From positions 1-64,000 of the IMG/VR virus record IMGVR_UViG_3300035698_019437: DNA of 64,000 bases. One strand, 5' to 3'. The DNA comes from a virus. Position numbers and translations under genes: made by a program. The stretch's first letter is position 1; the number at the start of each line of letters is the position of its first letter. The notes beneath the pieces were generated by a model. It made no database searches and was not told the origin of the DNA. It was given only the letters and a program-made list of their open reading frames with translations. This document shows, one piece after another, positions 2,252 through 37,832 of the stretch.

Positions 2252-2405
2252 ATGCAAAATGGAAAAATGATGTGTCGTGTTTGCAAAAAAACCTATTCAA
2301 AATAGATTTAAAGGTAAAAGAATTAGGTTCAAAAAAAAAGGCCAACCAGATGAAATTTTCCATATCTGTGGTCAATGCATGGAACAAAAATCCAGAAGAC
2401 AATGA
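2252..2405 (+). pseudogene. frameshifted small zinc-finger gene
   Basis: CRVC in one frame and ICGQC in another, joined if the A7 run at 2285-2291 were A6. Confidence 0.5.
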
Positions 2406-2725
2406 ACCAAATATCGTATGATAAACTTGTTAATTGCACATTTCTAGAAAGAGATAGAATGATACATAAGCTTTTCGATTTCTATCTATATTCTGGTTAT
2501 ATTGTAAACGAGATTAAACTCTGTACAAAGGCTTGGCTGCTTTTAAAGCGTTTCATGAGCAATGGCCTAGACATTGAAACTAATAAAAAGATGTTAGACT
2601 TGGGTATACACGGTTATTTATATGGCTCTAATTTAATTATAGATGATAAAATAGATGGAATAAAAGTAGCTATATTTAGCAGGCAGTTTAATAGTTATTT
2701 CTTTTGGAAGAAGATGGAAACGTAA
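2402..2725 (+). CDS. C-terminal W-tag protein (FFWKKMET)
   Basis: ATGA overlap start; terminal motif. Confidence 0.75.
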   Translation: MNQISYDKLVNCTFLERDRMIHKLFDFYLYSGYIVNEIKLCTKAWLLLKRFMSNGLDIETNKKMLDLGIHGYLYGSNLIIDDKIDGIKVAIFSRQFNSYFFWKKMET

Positions 2726-2726
2726 C

Positions 2727-3074
2727 ATGTTTAGTGGCGTTATGCAAACAATAAGAGTTGAAACAAAACTGCCTACGTTAAGAGACGTACACGGTATATT
2801 TCCTATTGTACATGAAGATTTTGGTAAAATACTGCATTTTATATATTACAATAAACCTCTCAAACGTAGTGGATGCAGAATTGTTATTGAAGCATTGAGA
2901 GAAAAGCCTATTACTTGGAGAGGATCACCCTCTAATATAAGATATGCAATGGACTTTTCAACGACTGCTTTATCAGATGTCTGGGTTGACCATTTTTGTA
3001 AACTATTCAGCAAATCTGACTACAGTTTTGTGTGTAGATTATCAAGGCTTGTTTGGATAGATATGGAGATTTGA
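2727..3074 (+). CDS. C-terminal W-tag protein (LVWIDMEI)
   Basis: ORF abutting neighbours; terminal motif. Confidence 0.75.
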   Translation: MFSGVMQTIRVETKLPTLRDVHGIFPIVHEDFGKILHFIYYNKPLKRSGCRIVIEALREKPITWRGSPSNIRYAMDFSTTALSDVWVDHFCKLFSKSDYSFVCRLSRLVWIDMEI

Positions 3075-3493
3075 TGAGTAATGGATGTTCTTTAAATATC
3101 GAAAACACTGATTGGCCTAAAAACATAATGGAGGTGGTCAGGATATTCAGAAACTCTACAACTACTCATGGTTTAGGAAGAATCATAGGATTTAACTTTG
3201 TTAAATTTACAGAAATAAGTTATCATCATGCCGAGCATGATTATTCTCTTATATTGTTCCCTATAAGAGAAGACACTCCAATATTTAGCGGTAAAGTTCC
3301 TAGTGTATTAGATAACTTTGCTTTCTATTTTAGGACTGCTAAACTTGCTATTCGATGGCTTAACAGAATCAACATCTTGTTGATATCAAAAGGATATAGT
3401 TTTAACGACCATACTGCTTACAATAACTTTTGGAGTAATCTGGCGAATCCTTGGGGAGAACTCCCGTTTATATGGAGGCCCATGAAAATATGA
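3074..3493 (+). CDS. C-terminal W-tag protein (FIWRPMKI)
   Basis: TGATG overlap start; terminal motif. Confidence 0.75.
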   Translation: MSNGCSLNIENTDWPKNIMEVVRIFRNSTTTHGLGRIIGFNFVKFTEISYHHAEHDYSLILFPIREDTPIFSGKVPSVLDNFAFYFRTAKLAIRWLNRINILLISKGYSFNDHTAYNNFWSNLANPWGELPFIWRPMKI

Positions 3494-3729
3494 TTCCTAG
3501 AGTAGGACAATCAATTTAGTTTCTTGAAAAACCGCGTTTAATCCGTAAAGTAACGAAAATAGGAACCAGTAAATATTTGATTCGAATTGGAAATTGTCAA
3601 CAGCAGTATGAACTTGATTTTGTATATAACGACCAAGTATTTAAGCGGCTGTCAAGCGATTTATTTATACCTGTTGAATGTGATATAACCTGTAATTCAA
3701 TGTTTTTATGGCACAACATAACAATATGA
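3490..3729 (+). pseudogene. W-tag gene with in-frame TAG at codon 10 (MIPRVGQSI*...FLWHNITI)
   Basis: ATGA overlaps at both ends; MIPxxGQ start like the next two genes; TAG at 3517-3519. Confidence 0.75.
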
Positions 3730-3932
3730 TTCCTGAAATTGGACAAATAATACGACGGTCAGATGGTCAAATTGGCATAGCAACTAAAATTACTATTGTC
3801 AACAAAGTTTCTAAATACAAGGTAATATTAGAAGATACTAAAGGCAATGAACTTGATTGTACTGTTATCCCTATGTATTATACTAATAGTTTAACAGCAA
3901 CAATGTTCTTCTGGAAAACAATGAAATTATGA
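3726..3932 (+). CDS. W-tag protein, MIPxxGQ family (FFWKTMKL)
   Basis: ATGA overlap; terminal motif. Confidence 0.78.
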   Translation: MIPEIGQIIRRSDGQIGIATKITIVNKVSKYKVILEDTKGNELDCTVIPMYYTNSLTATMFFWKTMKL

Positions 3933-4180
3933 TCCCAAGAACAGGACAACATATTGTCTATGGTGGTGGAGAATGCCTTATAATCGAAGTAAAGTCGCTA
4001 GGACGAAGTAAGTTGGTTAATAAATATGGTAGGAATTGCCAAGAAGACTTCGAAATTGCATTTATTTACAAAGGGATTACTTACCTAACAAAGGTAAACG
4101 ATTTGTTTTATCCAGTAGGGTACAAGATACCAGAAAATTGTCCAAGCTGGATGTTCCTTTGGAAACCTATGGAGATATAG
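3929..4180 (+). CDS. W-tag protein, MIPxxGQ family (FLWKPMEI)
   Basis: ATGA overlap; terminal motif. Confidence 0.78.
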   Translation: MIPRTGQHIVYGGGECLIIEVKSLGRSKLVNKYGRNCQEDFEIAFIYKGITYLTKVNDLFYPVGYKIPENCPSWMFLWKPMEI

Positions 4181-4186
4181 AAAGCT

Positions 4187-4429
4187 ATGTTTGACAAAAA
4201 AACATTAGACAGACTATTAGATAACCGAGTATACATCAAGCCCGAAACATTCGTTCTGCGGCAGTTTGGACCTGATTATGGAGGAGATGCGACTAAGTTT
4301 CTTGGAGAGGACGATACGTGGACAGACAAAGAACATGCCATCACATTTGACAACGCAAGAGACATGAAATTTGTCGCTAGAAAATTTTGGAAAGAACAGG
4401 ATTTGTTGCTGATTCCAGTTATAATATAG
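4187..4429 (+). CDS. hypothetical protein
   Basis: 80-aa ORF within operon. Confidence 0.7.
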   Translation: MFDKKTLDRLLDNRVYIKPETFVLRQFGPDYGGDATKFLGEDDTWTDKEHAITFDNARDMKFVARKFWKEQDLLLIPVII

Positions 4430-4443
4430 TGGAAGGTAAATCT

Positions 4444-4524
4444 GGGAACGTGGCAGACCGGAATGCATCCGACTCTTAATCGGTGGGCAATTGCCCTATG
4501 AGGGTTCGACTCCCTTCGTTCCTA
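4444..4524 (+). tRNA. tRNA with CTT (Lys) anticodon and long variable arm
   Basis: Acceptor GGGAACG/CGTTCCT, anticodon loop CTCTTAA, V-arm GGGC-AATT-GCCC, T arm GAGGG-TTCGACT-CCCTT. Confidence 0.88.
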
Positions 4525-4552
4525 TTGGTTCAACTTTTTTGACATTTTAACA

Positions 4553-4600
4553 AGGATTTCGAACCCATAATGTCGAATAACTCTATGTAAGGAGTTATTC
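4553..4600 (+). promoter_or_regulatory. AGGA-N18-GAAT promoter with RBS-sequestering hairpin
   Basis: GAATAACTC (4575-4583) is the perfect reverse complement of GAGTTATTC (4592-4600), covering the SD. Confidence 0.65.
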
Positions 4601-4601
4601 T

Positions 4602-5123
4602 ATGGGTAATGTAAAATCTATTAAAAATTGTCAAAGAAGAAAAAAAGAACTAGCGGTGGAGAGATTTGGCGGCAAATGCTGCATATGTGGATATAAAAAA
4701 TGCGTAGGATCATTAGTATTCCATCATTTAGAAGATAAAAAAGAAAATCCATCTTATATCGTTGCAAGATGGAGTTGGGAAAGAGCAAAAAAAGAATTAG
4801 ATAAATGCATTCTGGTTTGTGCGAATTGTCATGGTGAAATCCACTATAACAACGAAATAGACACAAGATTGTTGAAATACTATAAACCGTTTTTGAAAAA
4901 GAAATGTATCGTATGTCATAAGAAATTTGAAACTAAGAAATACGAACAGAAGTTTTGTTCTCATGAATGTTCAGGATTTTCACAAAGAGTTGCAAAAAGA
5001 CCTTCGAAAAAAGACTTGAAATTTTTATTAGAACAAGAAACAAGTTGGGTCAAACTGGGTAGAATGTTTGGTGTATCTGATAATGCTGTAAGAAAATGGG
5101 CTAGGAAATACGGTTTATTATAA
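4602..5123 (+). CDS. HNH homing endonuclease with zinc finger and HTH
   Basis: GGKCCICGY..FHH..KCILVCANCHGEIH; KFCSHEC; GVSDNAVRKW. Confidence 0.9.
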   Translation: MGNVKSIKNCQRRKKELAVERFGGKCCICGYKKCVGSLVFHHLEDKKENPSYIVARWSWERAKKELDKCILVCANCHGEIHYNNEIDTRLLKYYKPFLKKKCIVCHKKFETKKYEQKFCSHECSGFSQRVAKRPSKKDLKFLLEQETSWVKLGRMFGVSDNAVRKWARKYGLL

Positions 5124-5135
5124 AAGAGTATTCGG

Positions 5136-5450
5136 ATGGCTATAATTTATATGGATGACAAAGAAATAACTTTACATAAATTGCCCTTTAATGAAGGCGA
5201 TGAATTTGTTTGCAACCATTGCAAAAAAGGCGATGCAACGATACGAAAATATGTTGGTAGTGCGTCTCAGCATGACTTTGTTTATTATCTAGGTGGACCT
5301 GTAAAATGGGGACGAACTGCCGAGGCCGAATTTAAAAACGGCATTTTCGATTTGATTGTTGCTTGTACAGGATGCGGACAAAAAATGGATAAACGAGAGT
5401 TTCTTCTTCTTCCTGAAGATACTTTTAAGTGGAGACAGATGTGCCTCTAG
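5136..5450 (+). CDS. W-tag zinc-ribbon protein (FKWRQMCL)
   Basis: CNHC..CTGC; paralog of next gene (PExTFxW ending). Confidence 0.78.
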   Translation: MAIIYMDDKEITLHKLPFNEGDEFVCNHCKKGDATIRKYVGSASQHDFVYYLGGPVKWGRTAEAEFKNGIFDLIVACTGCGQKMDKREFLLLPEDTFKWRQMCL

Positions 5451-5740
5451 TATGCCTTTATGATAATGCTTCAGTAGAATTTTACGATATAATTGATGGT
5501 CCTTATAAACCAAATTTAAGATTCACAATAGGTGATATTTTTAAGTGCAAACGATGTGGAACTTCTAGCGCAGAAGTATTCCCGTGTACCCACGAAACGG
5601 CTGAAGCCTATATAGTTTTTAATGAGCGTTTAATTGTTAATCCATCACATATTAGAATAATATGTGTATGCGGATATGAAATGACTAAATGGGGACTTTT
5701 TCCTGAAGAAACGTTTGAGTGGCAGTATATGTATATATAA
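5441..5740 (+). CDS. W-tag zinc-ribbon protein (FEWQYMYI)
   Basis: CKRC..CVC; probable GTG start after GGAG (start uncertain). Confidence 0.72.
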   Translation: MPLVCLYDNASVEFYDIIDGPYKPNLRFTIGDIFKCKRCGTSSAEVFPCTHETAEAYIVFNERLIVNPSHIRIICVCGYEMTKWGLFPEETFEWQYMYI

Positions 5741-5747
5741 TTAAAGT

Positions 5748-5818
5748 GCTTCGGTAGCTCAGTTTGGCCAGAGCGGCTGTTAACCGCTAGGTTCTGGGTT
5801 CAAGTCCCAGTCGGGCCT
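5748..5818 (+). tRNA. tRNA-Asn(GTT), probably degenerate
   Basis: AGCGG-CTGTTAA-CCGCT arm and intact T arm, but the D-stem 3' strand and anticodon stem share the same AGC; acceptor stem mismatched. Confidence 0.65.
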
Positions 5819-5831
5819 TTATATTTTCATA

Positions 5832-5887
5832 AGGATTCCGAACAGATATTCCGAATATTAACTAGAGGCGTTAATATAAGGAGTATC
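5832..5887 (+). promoter_or_regulatory. AGGA-N17-GAAT promoter with RBS-sequestering hairpin
   Basis: GATATTCC-GA-ATATTAAC pairs with GTTAATAT-AA-GGAGTATC. Confidence 0.62.
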
Positions 5888-5889
5888 AA

Positions 5890-6426
5890 ATGGCTACATC
5901 TTCTGAACATGTAATGAATTGGCGAAATCGCACAAAGCAAAGATTAATTGAATACAAAGGTGGTAAATGCGAAAGATGCGGTTATGATAAAATACAATAT
6001 CCAAGAGCATTTGTCTTTCACCATAACGATCCATCAAAAAAAGAGATGTCTTTAAGTAAGGTTTGTAGAGCATTAGAAAAACTTAAAAAAGAAGTGGATA
6101 AATGCACTCTTTTATGCGCCAGATGTCATGCAGAAATACACGATGAGGCTGATGAAAAAAAACGCCAATTTAGATTAGACATAAAACCAAGGACTCCAAG
6201 GAAACTAAAACTTTGCAAATATTGTGGAACTGGATTTAAGACTTATCACAGAAAACAGAAGTTTTGTTCTGTCAAATGTAAAGCTATAGGAACAAGAAAA
6301 GTTTTGAACAGACCTAGTAAACATGTTTTAAAAAACATGAGAAAATCTATGTCACTAACTTCTATTGGCAAAAAATTTGGTGTTACTCATGGTACTATTC
6401 AAAAATGGTTAAATGTTAAATGTTAA
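5890..6426 (+). CDS. HNH homing endonuclease, paralog of 4602..5123
   Basis: GGKCERCGY..FHH..KCTLLCARCHAEIH; KFCSVKC; C-terminal HTH. Confidence 0.9.
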   Translation: MATSSEHVMNWRNRTKQRLIEYKGGKCERCGYDKIQYPRAFVFHHNDPSKKEMSLSKVCRALEKLKKEVDKCTLLCARCHAEIHDEADEKKRQFRLDIKPRTPRKLKLCKYCGTGFKTYHRKQKFCSVKCKAIGTRKVLNRPSKHVLKNMRKSMSLTSIGKKFGVTHGTIQKWLNVKC

Positions 6427-6602
6427 ATACATTGCAAGACATATTGGCTTTTGTAATTTATGTTGTTATTACGTTGGTGTTATTACCATCTTTTGCATTA
6501 ATATGGCTTGTAGGACTACCTATAATTGGCTTCAACTTAGAAGATACCAGGGATTATTGGGTATCTATTTTGACATGGGAATTTATGGAGTATGCGGTAT
6601 GA
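6420..6602 (+). CDS. small membrane protein
   Basis: Long hydrophobic stretch; ATGA overlap with next gene. Confidence 0.6.
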   Translation: MLNTLQDILAFVIYVVITLVLLPSFALIWLVGLPIIGFNLEDTRDYWVSILTWEFMEYAV

Positions 6603-7033
6603 AAACTGAAAAAGAGAAAAACACTATAGTTGTTCTGTTTGACGAACATAGAGAAATCACTGACGTTGCTGATCCTAATGATAGTTGGGACAGGGATAAT
6701 GATAGTATAGATGTAGAATTCAAAGAGTTGAGAACTGAACATCCAAAAAGAACTCCGCGAGGATGTTGGCCTCATGAAATTGAAGTTGACTTTGATCCCG
6801 AGAAATACGTTAATAAAGAATTAGGAATGGTTGTTGTTCGCTATTCCACTGGTGATACTTTTGGAAGTACTGAAGGTGCTTGGACTATAGTTGGCATTTT
6901 CACTGATTTGGTAAAAGCAGAAAAGATTGCCGTTGATATTGAAAATGATAACTATGGCAATAATAATGCTTGGCAAGGTTATTTTGAATCGCTAGAATGT
7001 GCAGATGTTAAGTACCTGACTTTAAGGAGATAA
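6599..7033 (+). CDS. hypothetical phage protein (YSTGDTFG motif)
   Basis: VVRYSTGDTFG...WQGYFESLE. Confidence 0.75.
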   Translation: MKTEKEKNTIVVLFDEHREITDVADPNDSWDRDNDSIDVEFKELRTEHPKRTPRGCWPHEIEVDFDPEKYVNKELGMVVVRYSTGDTFGSTEGAWTIVGIFTDLVKAEKIAVDIENDNYGNNNAWQGYFESLECADVKYLTLRR

Positions 7034-7034
7034 G

Positions 7035-7292
7035 ATGCCTGATCCGATTAAAAGAACTATCATTTGTAAAAACTGTAATCAGAGGGTTCAAGTTACATAT
7101 TTTGAAGATATGGGACAACCAACTCATTGTCTTGATTGTGGCGATGAAGAGATGGATAAAGACAAAGCAGAGTTTGTAAAGGTTTTTATGCAGATGTCTG
7201 AAAAAGAAAGATGGAAAATGCTTGCAGAATTTATGGTTGAAGAGAAGTGTAGGATGAATTTTGCAGAATATATGAGAAAATGCAAAGCTTAA
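7035..7292 (+). CDS. zinc-ribbon protein
   Basis: CKNC...CLDC; AAGGAG RBS. Confidence 0.72.
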   Translation: MPDPIKRTIICKNCNQRVQVTYFEDMGQPTHCLDCGDEEMDKDKAEFVKVFMQMSEKERWKMLAEFMVEEKCRMNFAEYMRKCKA

Positions 7293-7309
7293 TTTTAATT
7301 GGAAAACAT

Positions 7310-7394
7310 GCGGGCGTGACCAGAATTGGATATTGGAGCGGTCTTCTAAATCGCCGGGCTTGACCCATTGTAGGTTCGAATCCTACCGTCCGTG
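7310..7394 (+). tRNA. tRNA-Arg(TCT) with long variable arm
   Basis: Acceptor GCGGGCG/CGTCCGT, anticodon arm GCGGT-CTTCTAA-ATCGC, V-arm GGG-CTTGA-CCC, T arm GTAGG-TTCGAAT-CCTAC. Confidence 0.87.
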
Positions 7395-7398
7395 TTAT

Positions 7399-7575
7399 AT
7401 GTCAACTCCTTATAAATGTCGAAGATGTTGGTGGAGAGAAGGCAATTGTTGTTTCAACGAAGAATTCGCATTTACTAGTTTTGATAAGAAAGGTCTACGT
7501 GAAGGTGAGTTAATAGAAGAAGCAACTGTTGAAGCATGTCGCAAAAATATTGCTTCAAAAAATATACCCGCATAG
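7399..7575 (+). CDS. small Cys-rich protein
   Basis: CRRC..CC; lies between tRNAs, stop overlaps the 5' end of the next tRNA. Confidence 0.5.
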   Translation: MSTPYKCRRCWWREGNCCFNEEFAFTSFDKKGLREGELIEEATVEACRKNIASKNIPA

Positions 7576-7677
7576 CTCAACTGGATAGAGCAACGCTCTT
7601 CTTGTTCATCCTCCGTTAGAACGGAAACAGGGTTAACAAGAAAGCGTAGGTTAGAGGTTCGAATCCTCTTGTGGGTA
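7566..7677 (+). tRNA. tRNA-Arg(TCT) with 38-nt insertion in anticodon loop
   Basis: Acceptor ACCCGCA/TGTGGGT, D arm GCTC-AACTGGATA-GAGC, stem ACGCT/AGCGT enclosing CTTCT[7603-7640]AA, T arm AGAGG-TTCGAAT-CCTCT. Confidence 0.85.
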
Positions 7678-7691
7678 TTTGGAGATATAAA

Positions 7692-7880
7692 ATGAAATGT
7701 CCTAACTGTGATATGGAGTTGGAACTTATAAGCGAATCTGGCGAGCATAACGGTCCCAACGGCGGGAACATCTTCGTAGCCGAAGATATGGAAACCTGTA
7801 TCGAAGAATACGACAATAACATTACAACATATAAATGTCCCTTCTGTCGTACAGGTGTATACGTATCAGAACCTAAATGA
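7692..7880 (+). CDS. zinc-ribbon protein
   Basis: MKCPNC...CPFC; GGAG RBS. Confidence 0.72.
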   Translation: MKCPNCDMELELISESGEHNGPNGGNIFVAEDMETCIEEYDNNITTYKCPFCRTGVYVSEPK

Positions 7881-8047
7881 GTTCGACGTACAAAATCTTG
7901 TTTGTTTGTTGCAAATGTGGTTATGTAACAGAGCTAGAATTATATACCTGCGTTTCTCCTCCTAAAACATGGATATGTATGGACTGTACTCTCGAAACCA
8001 AAAGGTTTGAGGCTGGCGAATTCAATTGGCAAAATATAACCGTGTAA
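7877..8047 (+). CDS. W-tag zinc-finger protein (FNWQNITV), not in ORF track
   Basis: 56 aa, CKC..ICMDC; ATGA overlap; terminal motif. Confidence 0.72.
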   Translation: MSSTYKILFVCCKCGYVTELELYTCVSPPKTWICMDCTLETKRFEAGEFNWQNITV

Positions 8048-8226
8048 AAATTAAAGACTATTGCAGATATTGCGGATTCCAGATTACTTATAAATCCTAT
8101 AGTAGCTACAATAAAGATTATAGTCTCCTGCGCGATGAAGAATCTGGAGGCATTTTTTTCGCATGCAAAATCTGTGCTTTTAAACTAGGACATACTGGAT
8201 TTGCATGGAAAAATATGACGGTATAG
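8026..8226 (+). CDS. W-tag zinc-finger protein (FAWKNMTV)
   Basis: CRYC..CKIC; start uncertain. Confidence 0.68.
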   Translation: MAKYNRVKIKDYCRYCGFQITYKSYSSYNKDYSLLRDEESGGIFFACKICAFKLGHTGFAWKNMTV

Positions 8227-8228
8227 AC

Positions 8229-8405
8229 ATGGGAATTAATATTTGTCATTTTTGTAAGAATCCTATAAAACATTGTAGGTTAATGACAATAGTTAAACTT
8301 AAGACAAAAACTTCGTCCGTCTGGATATGCAACAAATGTGTTTCAATCGTTGCAAAAAGTAAAGATTCGAAGTTTGTATTTGTATGGAAAGAAATCGTTT
8401 TATGA
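8229..8405 (+). CDS. W-tag zinc-finger protein (FVWKEIVL)
   Basis: CHFC..ICNKC; terminal motif. Confidence 0.72.
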   Translation: MGINICHFCKNPIKHCRLMTIVKLKTKTSSVWICNKCVSIVAKSKDSKFVFVWKEIVL

Positions 8406-8788
8406 AGACCAAACGTTACTACCGTGTATTCGAAGTCAAGAAAGATGCCCCACATAGCATCTTTCATGGAACTCAAGGCTCTCGGATGTTGCCACTGAAT
8501 AAGTGGATAGAAGCTGATGTCAAAGACGTAACAGACGGAAGCGGTACGAGAGTTTACAAGTCTGGCTTCCATGTGATGAAAGACTTGCAGGCGACAACCG
8601 ACTTCTTCTTGAAGATGTTCAAGAAGTTCGAGAATCGAGTGATTGTTCCAGTAACGGTTGATGAGTCGGCAGGAATCTGGCGCAAAGAAAGAGCAAGAGG
8701 CGAAGTATTTTTGGCAAAGAAGATACGAATTGACAAGAGACAATGGAAAAAACGGATATACTTAGATAGTATAAATACACGCTCGTAG
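8402..8788 (+). CDS. hypothetical phage protein
   Basis: ATGA overlap; IFHG..LPLNKWIEA..SGFH. Confidence 0.75.
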   Translation: MKTKRYYRVFEVKKDAPHSIFHGTQGSRMLPLNKWIEADVKDVTDGSGTRVYKSGFHVMKDLQATTDFFLKMFKKFENRVIVPVTVDESAGIWRKERARGEVFLAKKIRIDKRQWKKRIYLDSINTRS

Positions 8789-8850
8789 TGAAATGGATAT
8801 CACGGGACGCTTCGAACGTCTCATTCTGGGTTCGATTCCTAGCGGGCGTA
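8779..8850 (+). tRNA. tRNA-Arg(TCG)
   Basis: Acceptor ACGCTCG/CGGGCGT, anticodon arm GGACG-CTTCGAA-CGTCT, T arm CTGGG-TTCGATT-CCTAG. Confidence 0.9.
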
Positions 8851-8852
8851 TT

Positions 8853-9203
8853 ATGGATAATCAGATGCCAAGGCCACATGGTAGATATCTTCATATCTAC
8901 GACGATTACGATAGCGTATATTTTCTTGATTTTCCTTTGATAGACAATAGAGCTTGTGTGGTTGTAGATTTACATACTAGTACGGTTGAACATATCTTCT
9001 GTAGCCACATTCAAAAGCAGTATAGATATCTTTGCGTTTATCAGAATAGTATTTCTGGAGGTTTCGAGAGCATGTGGCACGAAGCATTGTCTCTAACAAC
9101 GAAATTTAATATGTTAGTTATTATAGACAGGTTCGAAGGTAGAGTAACTAAAAACGTATATGGTCATGAACTCCTGTTTGTTTGGAAAGAGATAACAATA
9201 TGA
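8853..9203 (+). CDS. W-tag protein (FVWKEITI)
   Basis: First ATG after the tRNA; terminal motif. Confidence 0.72.
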   Translation: MDNQMPRPHGRYLHIYDDYDSVYFLDFPLIDNRACVVVDLHTSTVEHIFCSHIQKQYRYLCVYQNSISGGFESMWHEALSLTTKFNMLVIIDRFEGRVTKNVYGHELLFVWKEITI

Positions 9204-9727
9204 TGGAAATAGAAATCAAGATTCAGATTGGCGAGTTTGTTGAGATTGAAAAGATTGTTGAAGAGCATGCGTCTGTATGTCGTTCTGACTCTTACATAGA
9301 AGATATTTATTTTGACAACGGGACTTTAGCAGATCAAAGGAAATGTCTTCGTATTAGAAATGTAACAGGCAAATTCTGGGATGGGTTTTCTGTTCTGTCT
9401 TGCAAAGGTCCACCGTCAACAGAAGATGGTATCAAAAGCAGAAAAGAAACAGAAATTCCAGTACTCCCAAGAGATAAAGACGATTTCTTACATATCCTTG
9501 GAACTATGGGATTTGAAGAAACCGTACGTGTTAAAAAGCATCGTAGAGAATATACCTATGAATATTGCACAGTCTGCTTAGATGAAGTAGAGGGACTTGG
9601 GAATTTCATAGAGATAGAAGGAAACAGTATAGAAGAAGTTAATAAAGCAAAAGAAGTTCTTATTCCTAAAGATGATTTTGTTTGGGTAGTTGAAAGAAGC
9701 TATCCGGAATTGATGATGGAGAAATGA
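9200..9727 (+). CDS. CYTH-domain protein (class IV adenylate cyclase / triphosphate tunnel metalloenzyme family)
   Basis: N-terminal EIEIK (ExExK), DIYFD, LRIR, KGP..SRKETE, VKKHR, LDEVEGLGNFIEIE, SYPEL. Confidence 0.9.
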   Translation: MMEIEIKIQIGEFVEIEKIVEEHASVCRSDSYIEDIYFDNGTLADQRKCLRIRNVTGKFWDGFSVLSCKGPPSTEDGIKSRKETEIPVLPRDKDDFLHILGTMGFEETVRVKKHRREYTYEYCTVCLDEVEGLGNFIEIEGNSIEEVNKAKEVLIPKDDFVWVVERSYPELMMEK

Positions 9728-10032
9728 AAAGATATTACGTAATAGCTCCGCCAGATATAGCATGGGAATCGGATTGTGTTGATGCTGCTGATAGATGCCA
9801 TGCTTGGATGATTATAGATACTGAAGAAGAGACAGTACTTGAACTCAAATATCTGCCGAATCGGCCGGGGAGTAGATATTTTTGTATTAAGAATGACAGA
9901 TTCTGCTGGCGTTCATCAGTAAGTACAGTAAATCAACATCTGTTACCTTATGATTTTATCTTTGATTTTAATGATAGCATTGTTGTAAAAAACAATAGGA
10001 AATACTTATCATGGAAAACGATAAAGATATAG
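9724..10032 (+). CDS. W-tag protein (LSWKTIKI)
   Basis: ATGA overlap; terminal motif. Confidence 0.72.
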   Translation: MKRYYVIAPPDIAWESDCVDAADRCHAWMIIDTEEETVLELKYLPNRPGSRYFCIKNDRFCWRSSVSTVNQHLLPYDFIFDFNDSIVVKNNRKYLSWKTIKI

Positions 10033-10301
10033 AATTTGCTCCGCAAGATAGAATCAACTATCTTGAACCGTATATCAAAACGGTTTTAGAAGCTGTTGGT
10101 CACCCAGAGGCTTGGGTAAGCGATGAATCTAAAATGCATGATTTCATGGATATCTTCAATTGGATAAGAGATGAAAATGATTATCCGATAGGGTTAACAG
10201 AAGAAGGAAAGAAGTGGCATGCTGATGTAAAAGAAACTCTAGGGATAGATTTCGAATTAAATGAGTTGGTTTGGGAAGTAGCTAAAAGGCTTGCAACATG
10301 A
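10011..10301 (+). CDS. hypothetical protein
   Basis: 96-aa acidic ORF. Confidence 0.7.
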   Translation: MENDKDIEFAPQDRINYLEPYIKTVLEAVGHPEAWVSDESKMHDFMDIFNWIRDENDYPIGLTEEGKKWHADVKETLGIDFELNELVWEVAKRLAT

Positions 10302-10471
10302 AAAAAGGCAAGATGTCTGAAGAAGAATGGCACGATGAGCTTGACGGCTTTAGAATAGATTTCTTGTATAGCTGTCTTAAAGATCACAGAGTACCTACTG
10401 TCATTATGCCAGATTTAATAAGCTACTTAAGTCTTAGAAAAGAATTTTGCTGGATCGACATAATCAAATAA
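10298..10471 (+). CDS. W-tag protein (FCWIDIIK), not in ORF track
   Basis: 57-aa ORF with ATGA overlap. Confidence 0.65.
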   Translation: MKKGKMSEEEWHDELDGFRIDFLYSCLKDHRVPTVIMPDLISYLSLRKEFCWIDIIK

Positions 10472-10477
10472 ACCCAT

Positions 10478-10681
10478 ATGGAAGAAAAAGGCACAATAAA
10501 AGTAGATAATCTGGTTAAACAGACGATTCATGTTGTCGATATTATAGATACAACGTTCAATGATGCGATGCAGAAGGCGATAGAACATCAAGAGCCAGGT
10601 TGCATAGTTGTCATTGAAGGAGAAAATTTTAAAATTAAACTAGACAATGGCAAATTTTATGGTATATATAAACGTAAGTAA
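10478..10681 (+). CDS. hypothetical protein
   Basis: 67-aa ORF. Confidence 0.6.
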   Translation: MEEKGTIKVDNLVKQTIHVVDIIDTTFNDAMQKAIEHQEPGCIVVIEGENFKIKLDNGKFYGIYKRK

Positions 10682-10683
10682 TC

Positions 10684-10757
10684 GCGCCGTTGGTGTTTAA
10701 CGGCTAGCACGTCAGCCTTCCAAGCTGAAAGTACCAGTTCGAATCTGGTACGGCGCT
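10684..10757 (+). tRNA. tRNA-Gly(TCC)
   Basis: Acceptor GCGCCGT/ACGGCGC, anticodon arm TCAGC-CTTCCAA-GCTGA, U73. Confidence 0.93.
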
Positions 10758-10762
10758 TTAAA

Positions 10763-10969
10763 ATGTGGTATGTGTATTATATTCTGATTGGGTTGTTTTG
10801 CGGTCTTCTTTCTTATCTATTCGATAAAGAAGATTCTCCGGGTGAAAGAAGAGTATCTATCCTATTCTCTATTTTTGGATGGCCGGTGATTCTTTTTGCC
10901 ATTATATTTATGCTAACTATAGCTTTCTTTATAAGAATTTTCGAAGAATTCAAAGTATATTGGTCTTAA
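10763..10969 (+). CDS. small membrane protein
   Basis: Two hydrophobic segments, SIFGWP. Confidence 0.7.
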   Translation: MWYVYYILIGLFCGLLSYLFDKEDSPGERRVSILFSIFGWPVILFAIIFMLTIAFFIRIFEEFKVYWS

Positions 10970-10972
10970 AAC

Positions 10973-11215
10973 ATGCCATCTAAAGAATACATCCAAAGAA
11001 TCAGAGACAGATTCCAAAGAAAAGTAATGGCTTATCCTGAGCCTATTATTACGCATCATGGGGATTGCGAAATTTATCGCACAGATGCACCTGTATGCAA
11101 CTGTGGACTTTTGCATGATTTACTACCGATAGAAGAAGCTGAAATGTTGTATCCTGATTTTGTAAAAGATTTGGATAAGCACTATGCTACAATAGACAAG
11201 GCTTCTGATAGATAG
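10973..11215 (+). CDS. hypothetical protein, possible Zn-binding
   Basis: HHGDC...CNCGLLH. Confidence 0.7.
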   Translation: MPSKEYIQRIRDRFQRKVMAYPEPIITHHGDCEIYRTDAPVCNCGLLHDLLPIEEAEMLYPDFVKDLDKHYATIDKASDR

Positions 11216-11221
11216 TTTATT

Positions 11222-12902: not shown

Positions 12903-12983
12903 ATTGATATAGTTACGTCATTAAACTTATTTTCCTTGAAAATTTGTAGAAAGATATTGACGATTTATAGAGTATAGAATTAT

Positions 12984-27070: not shown

Positions 27071-27082
27071 GAGTATTAGTAA

Positions 27083-29677: not shown

Positions 29678-29689
29678 TAGGTACAAAAA

Positions 29690-30961: not shown

Positions 30962-31044
30962 TGGCCCACAAGGACTTATATCAATTCTGCTTTATGGTTC
31001 AGTTATTGTTGTATTTGTGAGTTGTTTATGCCGATAATAAAGGC

Positions 31045-32013: not shown

Positions 32014-32373
32014 ATGACCCTCGACCTTAGAAAATGGGAAACTAACGAAGAATGGGAAGTAACCAAGAAGGCTATTTTTAAGAATCTTCCTGGTGGCTTT
32101 GAATTTTTCGTGCAAGGAACTATGTTTAGTTGTGATCTACGTGCTGATGCATGTGGAAAAGACAAATTAGTATATACTGTATACGAAATAGATGATGATT
32201 ATAATTTTGTTATGACGATAACATGTGATTTATATACTGGTGGTTGGAGCCGCACAAACACTTCGGCAAAAAGAGGGAATGAAAGCTATCATAGCATTTG
32301 GTTAGCGGTTATAGACGTTTTTTATGATTGCGTGTTGGATTATCATTTTTCTTGGAGAGCCATGCGAATATGA
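32014..32373 (+). CDS. W-tag paralog family (FSWRAMRI)
   Basis: LPGGFEF N-motif; terminal motif. Confidence 0.78.
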   Translation: MTLDLRKWETNEEWEVTKKAIFKNLPGGFEFFVQGTMFSCDLRADACGKDKLVYTVYEIDDDYNFVMTITCDLYTGGWSRTNTSAKRGNESYHSIWLAVIDVFYDCVLDYHFSWRAMRI

Positions 32374-32678
32374 AATACTATCCTCATCAAATCAGAACTT
32401 TTGAGTTCTATCATGATGGCAGACATTATTTGGCTTATCAGCGTTTGAGTGAGTATCAGCAGTATTACTATTACACATCTTTTCGAAACAGTTCTGGAAT
32501 GAAGATCAATTTTGTTGGTATTAGATGGAAAGAACCGGGAAGATTATTTATACTCATAGAAGATTATTATTCTACGCGATCACCCGACTTTGATACAATG
32601 GGATTTTTAGATTCTGCAACAGATGCGTTTAAAACAAAGGTTTATTCTGCGTTTTTCTGGGAACAGATGGAAATATGA
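32370..32678 (+). CDS. W-tag paralog family (FFWEQMEI)
   Basis: ATGA overlap; terminal motif. Confidence 0.78.
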   Translation: MKYYPHQIRTFEFYHDGRHYLAYQRLSEYQQYYYYTSFRNSSGMKINFVGIRWKEPGRLFILIEDYYSTRSPDFDTMGFLDSATDAFKTKVYSAFFWEQMEI

Positions 32679-32715
32679 ATAGGTATTACCTGTTTTTTGT
32701 TGTAATATAATTCTT

Positions 32716-33333
32716 ATGAATTGGTATAAGCAAGCACAACCTATCAAGCAACCGTGGGAAATGACTCGTAGAGAGTTCATGGATTACCACAAAACAGGCC
32801 ACATATCAGAAGGTACATACGATATGTACAGCACTCGCGAGGGTATTGACTGGTTGGGGCCAAAAGAAAAACAACCAATGGTTCATAGTAAAAAGACTTT
32901 TGGAGATGTTGAAGTAGAGTTCCGGCAGACCGGCAAAAAAAACAAATACGTACGCACAGATGAAAACAATGAAATAGTACGAGACCCAGCAGGTACCGCA
33001 TTATATTTAACCGATGAAGAAATAGTTGAAAGGGGCTATTCGCCTTACGACACAGGTATTACAGCATACGATTCAGGAGGCCCGATTGGTTGGGTTGCCA
33101 ATAGTTTCGGCGTACCCGAAGTTTTTGTTATCAAAGAACGACAACGACTAGGTATCGGTACATATCTTTTATCTGAGTGGATGAAGCTTCGTAAACCAGA
33201 CCAACATTTCGGTCAAATGACAACTTCTGGCGAGAATATGTCTCTCTCTTATCACAAGCAACAAATTGCCGATGCTATTCGTGAAGGTAAATCCGTTCCT
33301 GATGAAGTGTTAAATGAGTATCCAGAGTTGTGA
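32716..33333 (+). CDS. MNWYK-tag protein with GNAT-like domain
   Basis: MNWYKQAQ; VFVIKERQRLGIGTYL resembles acetyl-CoA motif A. Confidence 0.72.
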   Translation: MNWYKQAQPIKQPWEMTRREFMDYHKTGHISEGTYDMYSTREGIDWLGPKEKQPMVHSKKTFGDVEVEFRQTGKKNKYVRTDENNEIVRDPAGTALYLTDEEIVERGYSPYDTGITAYDSGGPIGWVANSFGVPEVFVIKERQRLGIGTYLLSEWMKLRKPDQHFGQMTTSGENMSLSYHKQQIADAIREGKSVPDEVLNEYPEL

Positions 33334-33387
33334 AATCTTGTTCGTTACAGGATGCCTTTTCTAGTGAAAAACCATTTCTTTAAATCG

Positions 33388-33415
33388 TTGATATTTGGTA
33401 TTTCTGCGTTATAAT
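33388..33415 (+). promoter_or_regulatory. sigma70-like promoter, leaderless start at 33422
   Basis: TTGATA-N16-TATAAT, 6 nt before ATG. Confidence 0.5.
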
Positions 33416-33421
33416 GTGACT

Positions 33422-33769
33422 ATGAGTGGCGATAGAAATGTATTTGAATTTCCTTCTGAGGAGATAATATACTTCAGCTTCATTTTTGATGATGTGAAAT
33501 ATAGCTGTCATGCTTGTTATTGCAACTATGCATCTAGGTATGCCATTTATACCAAGTCTTTAATTAAGGGTATACATGTTCGTGTATCAGATGTCGAGTG
33601 GGTTCCCGCATATAATGGTTGCAAAGACAGATATTTTAGATGCGTCGATACTCATGGATATGTTTTTCCTGCATTTACGAGTTTAGACGACTTTTTTGCT
33701 ACTATCACAAGAACGATGAGGAAGCTTCTTGGGCTTCATCTTTTTAGTTGGAAAGAGATGACACTATGA
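33422..33769 (+). CDS. W-tag paralog family (FSWKEMTL)
   Basis: Terminal motif. Confidence 0.78.
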   Translation: MSGDRNVFEFPSEEIIYFSFIFDDVKYSCHACYCNYASRYAIYTKSLIKGIHVRVSDVEWVPAYNGCKDRYFRCVDTHGYVFPAFTSLDDFFATITRTMRKLLGLHLFSWKEMTL

Positions 33770-34080
33770 ATAAAGACATATTACCTCCGCGTACATTCCA
33801 TGTGATTTGTAGAAATACTACATATAGATTCTTTTTTTATACTATAGAAAATAAAATGATGTACGGGATTCATACGACAAATCTTCCTATAGACCCTATA
33901 ATGGAAGCAGAGCTTTACATCCATAAAGATTTTAAGAAGAATTTTGATGTTCACATGAACGTACATAGAGCTTACTGTAATTTAGGACCAAGGTTTTTTG
34001 CAGACTTATTTGAAAGGGCGTATAAAACTATCAAATTCATTATGTCGAATAGTTTTCGTTGGGAAGAAATTACAATATGA
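33766..34080 (+). CDS. W-tag paralog family (FRWEEITI)
   Basis: ATGA overlap; terminal motif. Confidence 0.78.
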   Translation: MNKDILPPRTFHVICRNTTYRFFFYTIENKMMYGIHTTNLPIDPIMEAELYIHKDFKKNFDVHMNVHRAYCNLGPRFFADLFERAYKTIKFIMSNSFRWEEITI

Positions 34081-34397
34081 CTCATAGACATGAAATGGAA
34101 ATAAGATTACCGGAGCCTATAGAGATTTTTGGATTTGGGTTAGACGGTAATAATTTCATGGCAATATTGGAGAAGACTACAGAAGAATATTGGTTATATC
34201 GTGTTCATCTTGGTAATAAACATGTTTTTTCTTTTATGTTCCGTCTTTACTATTTAAAATTTGCTTTCTTCCATAACGAGGTACATAAATGTGCTGCAAT
34301 GCATTTAGATTATAGGAAGATTGCAGGAGCGGCTGACAAAAGCTTTGACAAATTTATTCTTTCCCAGATTTTTGTTTGGCAAGAGATACAGATATGA
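34077..34397 (+). CDS. W-tag paralog family (FVWQEIQI)
   Basis: ATGA overlap; terminal motif. Confidence 0.78.
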   Translation: MTHRHEMEIRLPEPIEIFGFGLDGNNFMAILEKTTEEYWLYRVHLGNKHVFSFMFRLYYLKFAFFHNEVHKCAAMHLDYRKIAGAADKSFDKFILSQIFVWQEIQI

Positions 34398-34681
34398 TAC
34401 CAGAACTTCCGGAACAATTTGAATTGTTTTTTGAAGAAAAGTTTTTTAGCTTCACCATGAAGCGTCAATGGACGAAGAACATACAGTTCCCTGTGATTTA
34501 TTTTATAAATAGCATTCCTTTTAACAGTAGCAAAAGCTATGTATCATCTTTACATCTCGATGTCCTTCACGGAGATTTATGTTTTAGTATTGCGAATAAC
34601 AGTAACATGGGTGAAGAGGCATGCATCTTGTTAGAAAAAATGAATGGTTTATGGTTTAAGTGGAGTTGGATGACGCGATGA
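34394..34681 (+). CDS. W-tag paralog family (FKWSWMTR)
   Basis: ATGA overlap; terminal motif. Confidence 0.78.
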   Translation: MIPELPEQFELFFEEKFFSFTMKRQWTKNIQFPVIYFINSIPFNSSKSYVSSLHLDVLHGDLCFSIANNSNMGEEACILLEKMNGLWFKWSWMTR

Positions 34682-35076
34682 CAAGGGCACTTGAACAAAC
34701 AAGAGCTTCTTTAAGATATGCCTATCATATAAAAGGACATTACCCTAAAGAATTCAGATTCTACGCGAATGGACTACCTTTTAGATGTGTTGCTAATCGC
34801 CGTCTAACGAGCGGAATGTATTATGCTTTGTATTATGAATTGTATTATGCTGGACCTTTTGCTGATGGTAAAATAGTTGACACGTTGATTGTAGATGTTT
34901 GTGATAGTATGACTTTTGATTGTGGGAGTAATCAGTATATACCTCATGCTTCTGATAGGTTTAAAGGAAATCAATTTAACATAGAAAAATGGTTTGTTAT
35001 ACAAGAAGCTCACGCCGTATTCGTTGATATTATGACTGATCCTTTTCATCTTTGTTGGGTGGATATAATAGTATGA
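34678..35076 (+). CDS. W-tag paralog family (LCWVDIIV)
   Basis: ATGA overlap; terminal motif. Confidence 0.78.
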   Translation: MTRALEQTRASLRYAYHIKGHYPKEFRFYANGLPFRCVANRRLTSGMYYALYYELYYAGPFADGKIVDTLIVDVCDSMTFDCGSNQYIPHASDRFKGNQFNIEKWFVIQEAHAVFVDIMTDPFHLCWVDIIV

Positions 35077-35408
35077 TACCTATGAACCCAAATCTTCTTC
35101 CTCTTGAGGTAAATTTTTGTATTGAAGGAATTGAATTCAGGTGTTGTTTAACAAAAACAAAAACGGATACTGGTTTTTCTTATAGTTATAGAGTAATAGA
35201 AGACTTACATTTTCTTCCCGGTAAAGTATATTCCGTTCATTGTTTTTCTATAGAATATGGAGTTGATGAATCAAAAAGAGTCTACTTGCGAGCTGTCATA
35301 GACGGCAGAACGCCGTGTGATAAAGATTTTGTTATTAAACCCACCTGTAAATTACATGACATTCTTGCTGATGAGGGGTATTTTCATTGGAAACAGATAA
35401 TGATATGA
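35073..35408 (+). CDS. W-tag paralog family (FHWKQIMI)
   Basis: ATGA overlap; terminal motif. Confidence 0.78.
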   Translation: MIPMNPNLLPLEVNFCIEGIEFRCCLTKTKTDTGFSYSYRVIEDLHFLPGKVYSVHCFSIEYGVDESKRVYLRAVIDGRTPCDKDFVIKPTCKLHDILADEGYFHWKQIMI

Positions 35409-35683
35409 AAGACTTTACTCCTCCTAGATTATTATCTTTTCATTTTGGATTTACGCACTATACTTGTCAAGTAGACTCCAAGAAAAAGACATGTACTGTT
35501 TATAAGACTTTTGGTATGGTTCCTGTTTTTATGGCTGAATTCTTTATAGATAATGAATATCTAGTTACAATGCGAGCGACACGCCGCTATGAGGAATATT
35601 GCTATACTTTAACAAAAAAGGTTGAAAGAGAATTTCGAGATTATATGATTAACAAGTTTATGTGGAAGAACATGAAAACATGA
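35405..35683 (+). CDS. W-tag paralog family (FMWKNMKT)
   Basis: ATGA overlap; terminal motif. Confidence 0.78.
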   Translation: MKDFTPPRLLSFHFGFTHYTCQVDSKKKTCTVYKTFGMVPVFMAEFFIDNEYLVTMRATRRYEEYCYTLTKKVEREFRDYMINKFMWKNMKT

Positions 35684-35967
35684 TAGATGAAGATTACAGA
35701 CTTCCGAGTTTTTTTGGAGTTAGAATCTCTGATCGTCTATTTGTCTGTACTATCCGTAAACTCAGAAATAGTTACAGGTATGTGGTTCATACTTCAATTG
35801 ATGGTGAGACTTTGAAGATTGGTTCTTTTTCGGTAGTTTTACGAAAAAATGGCAAGTATGGTATTATTAACTTTGAGAAAGAATATGTAGAACTTGTTAG
35901 CGTTATGACTAAAGAACTAAATCATGTTGTTAGCAACAGATTCTATTGGATAGAGATGGAAATATGA
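35680..35967 (+). CDS. W-tag paralog family (FYWIEMEI)
   Basis: ATGA overlap; terminal motif. Confidence 0.78.
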   Translation: MIDEDYRLPSFFGVRISDRLFVCTIRKLRNSYRYVVHTSIDGETLKIGSFSVVLRKNGKYGIINFEKEYVELVSVMTKELNHVVSNRFYWIEMEI

Positions 35968-36233
35968 ATTTATGTAGTAATACTTTACCTGTATTTTTTA
36001 AATTCGAGGTCGAGGATGAAGTGTGGACATGTTCAATTGCACAGGAACGTGGTCCTTATTATGTTGTAAGTTGTGGCTCATCAAGCGCAGGAGCTAATTT
36101 GTCTTTTTCCGATTCAGGGGATTACATTATATCATTATATACGGGAACAGATAGATGGGATAAAGTGTTTAAGAAAGCTTCTGATATATTGAACGAGTTA
36201 TGTTATTTTTGTTGGCAAGAAATGGAAATATGA
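35964..36233 (+). CDS. W-tag paralog family (FCWQEMEI)
   Basis: ATGA overlap; terminal motif. Confidence 0.78.
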   Translation: MNLCSNTLPVFFKFEVEDEVWTCSIAQERGPYYVVSCGSSSAGANLSFSDSGDYIISLYTGTDRWDKVFKKASDILNELCYFCWQEMEI

Positions 36234-36511
36234 ACGCAGATTTTCCAGATACATTTTGTTTTACCTACAGGATGGAGAGGATTGAAGCTATAAATAAGAG
36301 GGGAACTGGGCCGTTCTTATATGATTTAACCGGACTTTGTGGAAGAAGTATAGCAACCCTTGAAGTACGAAAATCTCATCTTGAAGGCGTAGTCGCGTTT
36401 AATATTTTAGACAAACTCGATTATCATGCTTTTGAAATTGGAAGAATAGCGTGTTGTTTATTGGAAAACATGTTAGGATTTTGGTTCGGATGGAAATGGA
36501 TGACTTTATGA
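36230..36511 (+). CDS. W-tag paralog family (FGWKWMTL)
   Basis: ATGA overlap; terminal motif. Confidence 0.78.
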   Translation: MNADFPDTFCFTYRMERIEAINKRGTGPFLYDLTGLCGRSIATLEVRKSHLEGVVAFNILDKLDYHAFEIGRIACCLLENMLGFWFGWKWMTL

Positions 36512-36837
36512 GTGATTGGTTTATAACTCGCGTTTCTTTGGGGAACAGGGCTATCAATTTCCCTCGTTTATTTGAATTTCGATTAAGTAATAAAATATAT
36601 CAATGTGAGTTAGTTTTTAAAGATTCGAAGCCTTATTATCTTATGTTTTGTATGGGGAAAGATGGGTTGCATTTTGAATGGGGTTCTTGTTCTAAAATGA
36701 CTATTTCTAGTAATGGTGAATATACTTTATCTGTTAGTCGTTTTGCGGATGAAAATAGTACACTTTCTGTAGCAGCCTCGGAAGTACTGAACGATCTTTG
36801 TTATAAATATTTTCATTGGATTCCTATGACAAGTTAA
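36508..36837 (+). CDS. W-tag paralog family (FHWIPMTS)
   Basis: ATGA overlap; terminal motif. Confidence 0.78.
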   Translation: MSDWFITRVSLGNRAINFPRLFEFRLSNKIYQCELVFKDSKPYYLMFCMGKDGLHFEWGSCSKMTISSNGEYTLSVSRFADENSTLSVAASEVLNDLCYKYFHWIPMTS

Positions 36838-36887
36838 GTGAAAAACAAATCTGTATAATAGTGTTATTCACATTATAGGAGATTCTA

Positions 36888-37079
36888 ATGAAACCTGCTA
36901 AGAAGATAGAAGTCAATCATTCAATTTGGACGCTTCCTAAATGGGCTAAAGAAGATTCGAAGTACAAAGACAAACCAGCAGAGTACTATAAAGAGTATAT
37001 TGACTACGTAAAGTCTTTTAATGCTGGTGTTGATGCAGCTAAAAAGGAACAGAAGAATGATGAAAGCAAAGAAGCGTGA
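36888..37079 (+). CDS. hypothetical protein
   Basis: AGGAG RBS. Confidence 0.7.
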   Translation: MKPAKKIEVNHSIWTLPKWAKEDSKYKDKPAEYYKEYIDYVKSFNAGVDAAKKEQKNDESKEA

Positions 37080-37371
37080 TAGAATTCTCACTGGTGCAGA
37101 TTTTCATCCGGACCTTTTAGAAAAACTCTGGCCCATACTTGAAGGCGGTATGGTAGAGTTTTTAGCTAATACTACGGATGTTTTAAGAGTCAAAGTAATT
37201 CCCATGTGGGAATCTGGTGATCCTGTCGTAAAGAATTCACTCGATTTTGAACTTGGTTTAAAAAGATGGCAAGAGGCTCAAGTTAAAATGTGTGGGCATT
37301 ATCTTATTCCTGAAAGTTTCCGTGTTGGTAAAGGAATTGCCGTTGAGTGTGTTATATCTAAAAAGGGTTAA
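37057..37371 (+). CDS. hypothetical protein
   Basis: ORF within operon. Confidence 0.65.
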   Translation: MMKAKKRDRILTGADFHPDLLEKLWPILEGGMVEFLANTTDVLRVKVIPMWESGDPVVKNSLDFELGLKRWQEAQVKMCGHYLIPESFRVGKGIAVECVISKKG

Positions 37372-37373
37372 CT

Positions 37374-37832
37374 ATGAAAGATGTGACTCAACCAACTATC
37401 ATAATAGAATCTGTTTGGTGTACTCCTGAGATTAATGATGAAAGCTTTACATTTGGAGCAAAAGAAGAAAATGCAGGGAATACTATACTAATTCCTCATT
37501 TCTTTTTTAATGAAGATGGAGCAGTTATAGGTGGAAGAGGTGCTTTGACTATACATAAAACCAGGTATAATACTCGTGAATCTGTTCCAGATGATGCTTG
37601 TGAAATCAAACAAGAGTGGGTAAATAAGCAAATTAAAGCTGCTGTAAAAATGCACCTTTCTTTGGGTGGTACTGAACAGGATAATTTGACTGAATTATAT
37701 GTTTATGTTTTTAGAAGAAGCGACATTCCTTGTCTTGGCATATTTGTAAATAAAACTCCATATATACCTTACATCGTATCTTTTAGAAAAGTAGACAGAC
37801 GAAACATGCCTTGGAAAGAGATTTTCATATAA
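37374..37832 (+). CDS. W-tag protein (MPWKEIFI)
   Basis: Trp at -6, Ile at -3. Confidence 0.72.
   Translation: MKDVTQPTIIIESVWCTPEINDESFTFGAKEENAGNTILIPHFFFNEDGAVIGGRGALTIHKTRYNTRESVPDDACEIKQEWVNKQIKAAVKMHLSLGGTEQDNLTELYVYVFRRSDIPCLGIFVNKTPYIPYIVSFRKVDRRNMPWKEIFI

Follow-up and report, generated by a model that had tools for sequence, protein, structure and literature searches.

A shared C-terminal octapeptide on small, mostly unrelated proteins of two huge-phage genome fragments

The first 64 kb (the window, whose coordinates are used unless another source is named) of the 147,268-bp virus record IMGVR_UViG_3300035698_019437 (G000) encode 28 small proteins ending in the same type of octapeptide, with the consensus Phi-x-W-[KQR]-[DEN]-[MI]-x-[IVL]-COOH, where Phi is a hydrophobic residue. 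This tail is a peptide-level, modular element anchored to the C-terminus. We consider it probable (about 0.6) that the octapeptide is a protein-level C-terminal short linear motif, hereafter the tag, which sits on many small, fast-diverging and mostly unrelated proteins and is carried by a subset of uncultivated phage-G-like huge phages. The record has a G+C content of 36%, bears nearly all of its genes on the + strand and has a CheckV completeness of 29%.

Recovery of the tail and its controls

Stop-to-stop open reading frames (ORFs) of at least 30 residues were searched with the regular expression [FLM].W..[MI]..$. In the window, 28 of the 362 ORFs on the + strand matched, as against 0 of the 631 on the - strand, and these were the same 28 ends and tails that the original prediction had listed. 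The rate expected from amino-acid frequencies is 1.7e-4 per ORF. Residue-shuffled ORFs, a control suggested along with that prediction, matched 0.12 times on average and never more than twice in any of 2000 runs. Internal copies of the motif stayed at chance level (5 in 30,830 residues). Over the whole record, 29 tails were found on the + strand and 0 on the - strand; the extra one, at 126490-126819 outside the window, is a single copy and could be due to chance. When the end of the protein was not used as an anchor, the DNA pattern TTY-N3-TGG-N6-ATR occurred 28 times on the + strand of the window, and 22 of these copies were followed, after exactly 2 further codons, by an in-frame stop. Chance accounts for the other 6 and for the 4 copies on the - strand.

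Together with those from other DNA described below, 63 tails were collected. Trp at -6, Met or Ile at -3 and a hydrophobic residue at -8, as had been predicted, hold in all of them: W occupies -6 in 63/63, position -8 is F54 L7 M1 I1, and position -3 is M36 I27. The other positions of the logo read K20 Q14 R7 at -5, D15 E15 N9 at -4, T19 E15 K8 at -2, and I31 V10 L8 at -1. The carriers of the tail in the window are as follows.

2375..4180, + strand: six tagged genes in a row (from the regular expression and the ORF list), given in the next six lines
2375-2725, + strand: carrier ending FFWKKMET
2727-3074, + strand: carrier ending LVWIDMEI
3074-3493, + strand: carrier ending FIWRPMKI
3490-3729, + strand: carrier of the MIPxxGQ family ending FLWHNITI, with an in-frame TAG at 3517-3519
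3726-3932, + strand: carrier ending FFWKTMKL
3929-4180, + strand: carrier ending FLWKPMEI
5136-5450, + strand: zinc-ribbon carrier ending FKWRQMCL, paralog of 5441-5740
5441-5740, + strand: zinc-ribbon carrier ending FEWQYMYI, with a GTG start, followed by tRNA-Asn instead of a gene start
7877-8047, + strand: small CxxC...CxxC carrier ending FNWQNITV
8026-8226, + strand: small CxxC...CxxC carrier ending FAWKNMTV
8229-8405, + strand: small CxxC...CxxC carrier ending FVWKEIVL
8793..9203, + strand: singleton carrier of 136 residues ending FVWKEITI; its end overlaps (ATGA) the start of the untagged CYTH-domain gene 9200-9727
9724..10032, + strand: singleton carrier of 102 residues ending LSWKTIKI; the next ATG overlaps the Trp codon (offset -21)
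10298..10471, + strand: singleton carrier of 57 residues ending FCWIDIIK
32014-32373, + strand: beta-plus-helix paralog ending FSWRAMRI
32370-32678, + strand: beta-plus-helix paralog ending FFWEQMEI
33422..36837, + strand: 11 tandem paralogs linked by ATGA overlaps, ending at 33769, 34080, 34397, 34681, 35076, 35408, 35683, 35967, 36233, 36511 and 36837
37374..37832, + strand: singleton carrier of 152 residues ending MPWKEIFI, without an overlapping downstream start

Constraint on the peptide rather than on the DNA

Because the DNA consensus of the tail (TTT nnn TGG AAA GAG ATG nnA ATA TGA) holds Shine-Dalgarno (SD)-like purines and an ATGA stop/start overlap, we checked in five ways whether the peptide might be the by-product of a nucleic-acid signal, be it a ribosome-binding site or coupling element, a regulator or nuclease site, or a cassette recombination site. 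The consensus TTTnnnTGGAAAGAGATGnnnATATGA, with its purines and overlap, and the strong preference for ATA in the last codon favour such a signal. We nevertheless regard it as very improbable, since the motif keeps its place relative to its own stop codon, regardless of the next start. In 60/60 carriers of the two phages it stood at a constant distance from that stop, while the downstream start lay at offsets of -21, -9, -6, -3, 0, +2, +3, +4 and +7 to +51, or there was none. An SD or coupling element is expected to keep a fixed spacing (about 4-10 nt) to the next start, which the tail does not; ATGA overlaps were present at only 23 of the 60 junctions, and one carrier precedes tRNA-Asn. The SD of the phage, GGAGAT, lies 4-7 nt upstream of the ATG, and its location varies relative to the invariant residues. 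It falls on x(-5,-4) at ATGA junctions, on positions (-3,-2) at TAA-type junctions, as ATGGAGATATAA (ATG-GAG-ATA-TAA), and after the stop at others.

The conserved bases are the first and second positions of three codons, which leaves only about 7 invariant bases for a nucleic-acid signal. Synonymous choice in the tail was in line with the genome both for Phe (TTT:TTC 35:16 vs 71:29) and for Ile at -3 (ATA/ATT/ATC 16/6/4 vs 48/37/15). Other ATGA-coupled genes of the genome lack the motif, and other frames, intergenic DNA and the other strand showed no copies beyond chance. Promoter and terminator scans gave nothing above shuffles. Thus the peptide-level constraint that had been proposed is borne out by the fixed distance to the tail's own stop, the varying next start, the genome-like synonymous usage and the mobile SD. 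Recoding of TGA or TAG was considered and rejected, as the ORFs alternate in frame and the stops in the second phage fragment (G008, see below) are mostly TAA.

The strictly fixed distance to the stop codon also fits a nascent chain that acts in the ribosome exit tunnel at termination, as a pause or coupling signal for the next cistron or for mRNA stability. Arrest peptides typically have aromatic and Met residues 3-8 positions away from the P-site, and those of the tail are placed in a like manner; the carriers also stand in tightly packed polycistronic arrays. However, all three stop codons are used, tagged genes precede a tRNA, long gaps or nothing, and untagged genes of the same chains (e.g. 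8402-8788 and 9200-9727) are equally ATGA-coupled. A role in the exit tunnel is hence improbable.

Diversity of the carrier bodies

The original prediction had described the 28 carriers as proteins of unrelated folds. This stands for several groups, namely the CxxC...CxxC zinc ribbons, the MIPxxGQ trio and many singletons, but as a count of 28 unrelated folds it was overstated, because 13 carriers form one family and one carrier is a nonsense-interrupted gene. The 13 (32014-32678 and 33422-36837) make up a single diverged paralog family with about 20% identity, a common N-terminal P..F.F......C pattern and a C-terminal helix. The interrupted carrier, ending FLWHNITI, is the 3' part of the MIPxxGQ gene 3490-3729, broken by the in-frame TAG at 3517-3519. 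The broken gene is 37% identical to 3929-4180, and the record holds no suppressor tRNA. One in-frame TAG is also present in the AAA+ homologue of a relative, G001.

An AlphaFold2 model of the paralog family (predicted local distance difference test, pLDDT, 76) has 7-8 strands and a helix at residues 83-101, while the tag, at residues 102-109, is modelled as coil with a pLDDT of about 58 past the end of the helix. In this one confident model the tag is therefore predicted to lie outside the fold. Foldseek with the family model gave no significant match, and the model of the zinc-ribbon pair (pLDDT 42) was unusable.

It may be asked whether all carriers descend from one hyper-diverged gene family, with the tail as its most conserved structural or oligomerisation element. 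The 13 tandem paralogs at about 20% identity, the resemblance of the arrays to products of tandem duplication and the speed at which very small proteins lose detectable similarity all agree with a single family. Yet a profile hidden Markov model (HMM) of the family bodies alone matched only its own 13 members and none of the other 47 carriers (E above 0.07). BLAST among the 60 bodies left 56 components, so that homology was detectable for the bodies of the 13 only and not across all carriers. The modelled position of the tail outside the fold also argues against a structural element. Moreover, zinc ribbons, helical proteins of 31-60 residues and two HK97-type capsid fragments are among the carriers, which makes a fold in common with the beta-plus-helix family impossible. 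Descent from one family is thus rather unlikely. The tag instead behaves as the modular element that had been anticipated, being carried by zinc ribbons, the beta-plus-helix family, small helical proteins (by eye, several from G008 appear helical) and capsid-protein fragments. By sequence, no known C-terminal tag family fits it, and the prediction had named none.

The tag in other DNA

A search of 1.84 billion representatives with a profile of the paralog family returned the phage's own proteins and two new members, P0013 and P0015, whose tails are FHWQEMNI and FEWQWMKP, respectively. P0013 is encoded on a 625-bp ENA contig (L015) that has no nucleotide similarity to this genome and carries three chained genes, the first two of which end FRWRKIEL and FHWQEMNI. 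Two short ENA metagenome contigs thereby contributed three carriers in total.

A scan of viral contigs for the junction pattern led to a second phage fragment, G008, of 78,189 bp and 17% completeness. It encodes 31 carriers of 31-117 residues within 14 kb of a tRNA island, with stops that are mostly TAA. The pattern was found there 42 times in the forward and 5 times in the reverse direction, and the controls gave 9 and 7. No similarity was detectable between the bodies of the carriers of the two phages. The tail is conserved between phages without detectable similarity of the carrier bodies. A repeated, identical 20-nt element, TAATTGACATGGAAAGCATA, lies 3' of two adjacent tagged genes of G008 (11404-11423 and 11604-11623 of the merged fragment; L020). 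It includes TTGACA and may be a repeated promoter.

The three junction-pattern scans of viral contigs gave G008 and otherwise chance matches only, and the metagenome scan gave chance matches only among the matches listed. About 20 unrelated viral and 80 metagenome loci from the same scans served as a negative control, and each had 0-2 ORF ends of this kind. When the window was searched against the phage collection, at the DNA and the protein level and for near and distant matches, none was found; a related-locus search with the 152-residue carrier found nothing, and a word-indexed protein search with the family alignment returned the phage's own proteins only.

Carriers derived from the capsid protein

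A 289-residue protein of G008 (L020:2184-3053) shares about 55% identity with the major capsid protein (MCP) of Bacillus phage G, gp27. Its assignment is based on PDB 6wkk (E 4.5e-96), phrog_2522 and a tblastn match to NC_023719. When the carrier bodies were compared with all ORFs, two G008 carriers emerged as re-coded pieces of this phage's own MCP joined to the tag, a relationship that is new here. The first, G008_17009 (67 residues; ~L021:4848), is 53% identical to MCP residues 241-283 (E 1e-12; HMM E 6e-11; shuffle p 3e-12). The second, G008_11883 (42 residues; L020:11883), matches MCP residues 73-95 with an HMM E of 4e-4 and a shuffle p of 1e-7. Between the capsid gene and G008_17009, codon positions 1 and 2 are 62% identical and position 3 is 29% identical, so that synonymous sites are saturated; the nonsynonymous distance (dN) is 0.53, and the synonymous one (dS) is likewise saturated. 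Such a pattern points to an old, re-coded capsid piece that has been kept at the protein level, and not to a recent scrap.

The carrier at 2375-2725 was tried as a third capsid piece and rejected. Smith-Waterman comparison gave p 2.8e-4 and the HMM score was just above shuffles, while BLASTP gave nothing against the MCP of a closer relative. A search for shorter capsid-like proteins returned, among its top 120, truncated capsid genes or exons without tags. In G001, just upstream of the actin-like gene, two untagged mini-ORFs of 74 and 55 residues (L006:9602-10005) are similar to the capsid protein in its N-terminal arm; the first is 59% identical to MCP residues 7-38.

Phage lineage and the limits of the tag

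Both tag-bearing fragments appear to come from uncultivated phage-G-like huge phages. For G008 this follows the capsid type; for G000 the link is through a relative, G003, whose contig bears this type of capsid as well (80-92% identity). The assignment is in keeping with CheckV estimates of about 0.5 Mb and with the strong use of the SD. Relatives were found via a conserved 371-residue protein (50427-51542), which is 68-71% identical in six huge-phage contigs and has no Pfam or PHROG match. The G001 homologue starts with GLDCGT, an actin/Hsp70-like phosphate-binding motif, and the protein may be a phage actin-like protein. As a capsid protein it was rejected, given this start and the lack of any capsid match.

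Several observations weigh against reading the octapeptide as a protein-level tag of this clade. Cultured phage G and five relatives (about 850 kb) show no tag enrichment, so the tag is not essential to the clade. A near-identical strain (L162, ENA ERZ27315476) differs in 1 of 1561 bases, at window position 35388, and through this change from TGG to CGG the carrier ending at 35408 has Arg in place of the invariant Trp. There is also a nucleotide overlay: where the last residue is Ile, its codon is ATA in 28 of 30 cases vs 48% across the genome, x(-4) shows a mild excess of GAG, and the Trp codon contributes to the ATG of the next gene in 8 carriers. This overlay acts on the variable positions and not on the invariant ones. 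W and M are single-codon residues and therefore allow no synonymous variation. Only 2 of 60 bodies are demonstrably capsid-derived. Lastly, receptor candidates in the record were examined and no receptor was found.

Proposed mechanism and candidate receptors

The fixed distance to the free carboxyl end suggests that the tail and the C-terminus are read together by one common receptor, in the manner of ssrA and ClpX, PDZ ligands or cargo-loading peptides. The variable bodies would then be heads that bind or mimic targets, at least two of them as re-coded capsid pieces, and the tail would be the constant handle. After docking, the carriers might be delivered to an unfoldase or protease or be sequestered on another phage or host hub, which seem to us equally likely, or, with slightly lower odds, be loaded into the prohead or virion. 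Docking onto a hub or adaptor, as originally envisaged, is plausible. A bait-plus-handle arrangement is a more speculative extension, to which we give only limited credence. At least 30 hypervariable mini-proteins per genome might bind different host targets, e.g. defence sensors that watch the capsid, with some bodies being re-coded mimics of the highly conserved capsid protein of the phage itself, and the octapeptide might plug all of them into one hub that neutralises, degrades or relocates the targets.

Among candidate receptors, the ClpP, PDZ_2 (PF13180) and S41 families are absent from the record, which is 29% complete. The record does encode a Cdc48/VCP-like AAA+ ATPase at G000 98938-100659 (L002:14938-16659; E 2e-49 to Cdc48 D2), with a 280-residue N-terminal region whose fold is unknown. 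As the hub it was rejected, because it does not co-vary with the tag: G001 has the Cdc48-like protein too but no enrichment of the tag.

That no receptor candidate was found would also agree with tails that bind one another, for instance by beta-strand pairing, and build a mixed complex or condensate without a separate receptor. As an extended strand the tail would be hydrophobic on both faces, with F and W on one side and M/I and I/V/L on the other. However, a Trp that never varies and a strict register to the C-terminus are met more typically where a specific pocket binds, so we hold such self-association to be unlikely and prefer a tag read by one receptor.

Genes interspersed with the tagged arrays

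The untagged genes within the arrays encode enzymes or homing endonucleases (CYTH, NUDIX, UDP-glucose dehydrogenase, radical SAM, HNH and LAGLIDADG). In both phages, tRNA genes (9 in the window, 21 in G008) are interspersed with the tagged genes (window 1-10757; L020/L021), as are HNH or LAGLIDADG homing endonuclease genes.

A second shared tag, at the N-terminus, was observed in the same phage. Seven otherwise different genes (window 32716-44425) start with MNWY[KHR] or MSWYK, at 32716, 38743, 39399, 40123, 42077 and 43859, with the variant MNWLK at 38080. None of the seven (0/7) has the C-terminal tag, and one is located within the tagged array.

Significance and comparison with known systems

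About 30 fast-evolving mini-proteins in each of two giant phages bear the tag, which thereby offers an easy way, by sequence, into a large set of small phage genes that otherwise resist interpretation. If it is true that one receptor reads the tag, dozens of orphan proteins would share a common pathway. Carriers that mimic the capsid suggest a connection with capsid assembly or with detection of the capsid protein by the host, and the tag could serve as a portable targeting peptide. In a limited literature search, no published description of the tag was found.

Encapsulin cargo-loading peptides and the C-terminal tail of the HK97 prohead protease dock cargo inside a shell of the HK97 fold. They resemble the tag in being C-terminal peptides on diverse cargo, and the phages here have an HK97-type MCP. 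The tail is nevertheless unlike the GSL-type consensus, and the G008 capsid gene encodes an MCP of the phage G type, not an encapsulin shell. The ssrA degron, read by ClpX, and the C-terminal XB tail of SspB are tags of 8-11 residues that are read with the free C-terminus. The likeness lies in a two-part build, with an aromatic part upstream and a hydrophobic part at the end. The ssrA tag, however, is added by tmRNA and ends in LAA, whereas the tag here is encoded in the gene and ends in [MI]-x-[IVL], and there is no Clp component in the available DNA.

Class II PDZ ligands have the form Phi-x-Phi-COOH, e.g. the YxF tails of outer-membrane proteins that are read by DegS. The tag agrees with this form, with M or I at -3 in 63/63 and I, V or L at -1 in 49/63. 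It differs in having an invariant Trp at -6 and a Phe at -8 as well; also, no PDZ protein was found in the 29%-complete record, and signal peptides are absent from the carriers.

Among published systems, the capsid-targeting sequence (CTS) of phage T4 comes closest in its logic, being likewise a short terminal peptide common to small, polymorphic and otherwise unrelated phage proteins, so that many cargoes have a single address (PMC3012670). The CTS is N-terminal and is cleaved by the prohead protease (PMC3012670). It has about 10 residues and is removed at L/I-x-E, whereas the tag lies at the extreme C-terminus in 63/63 proteins. The tag also has another sequence and stands at a fixed distance from the carboxyl end. 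Terminal address peptides of phages have so far been known mainly from the T4 CTS, and the octapeptide described here would add a different, C-terminal and carboxyl-anchored tag.

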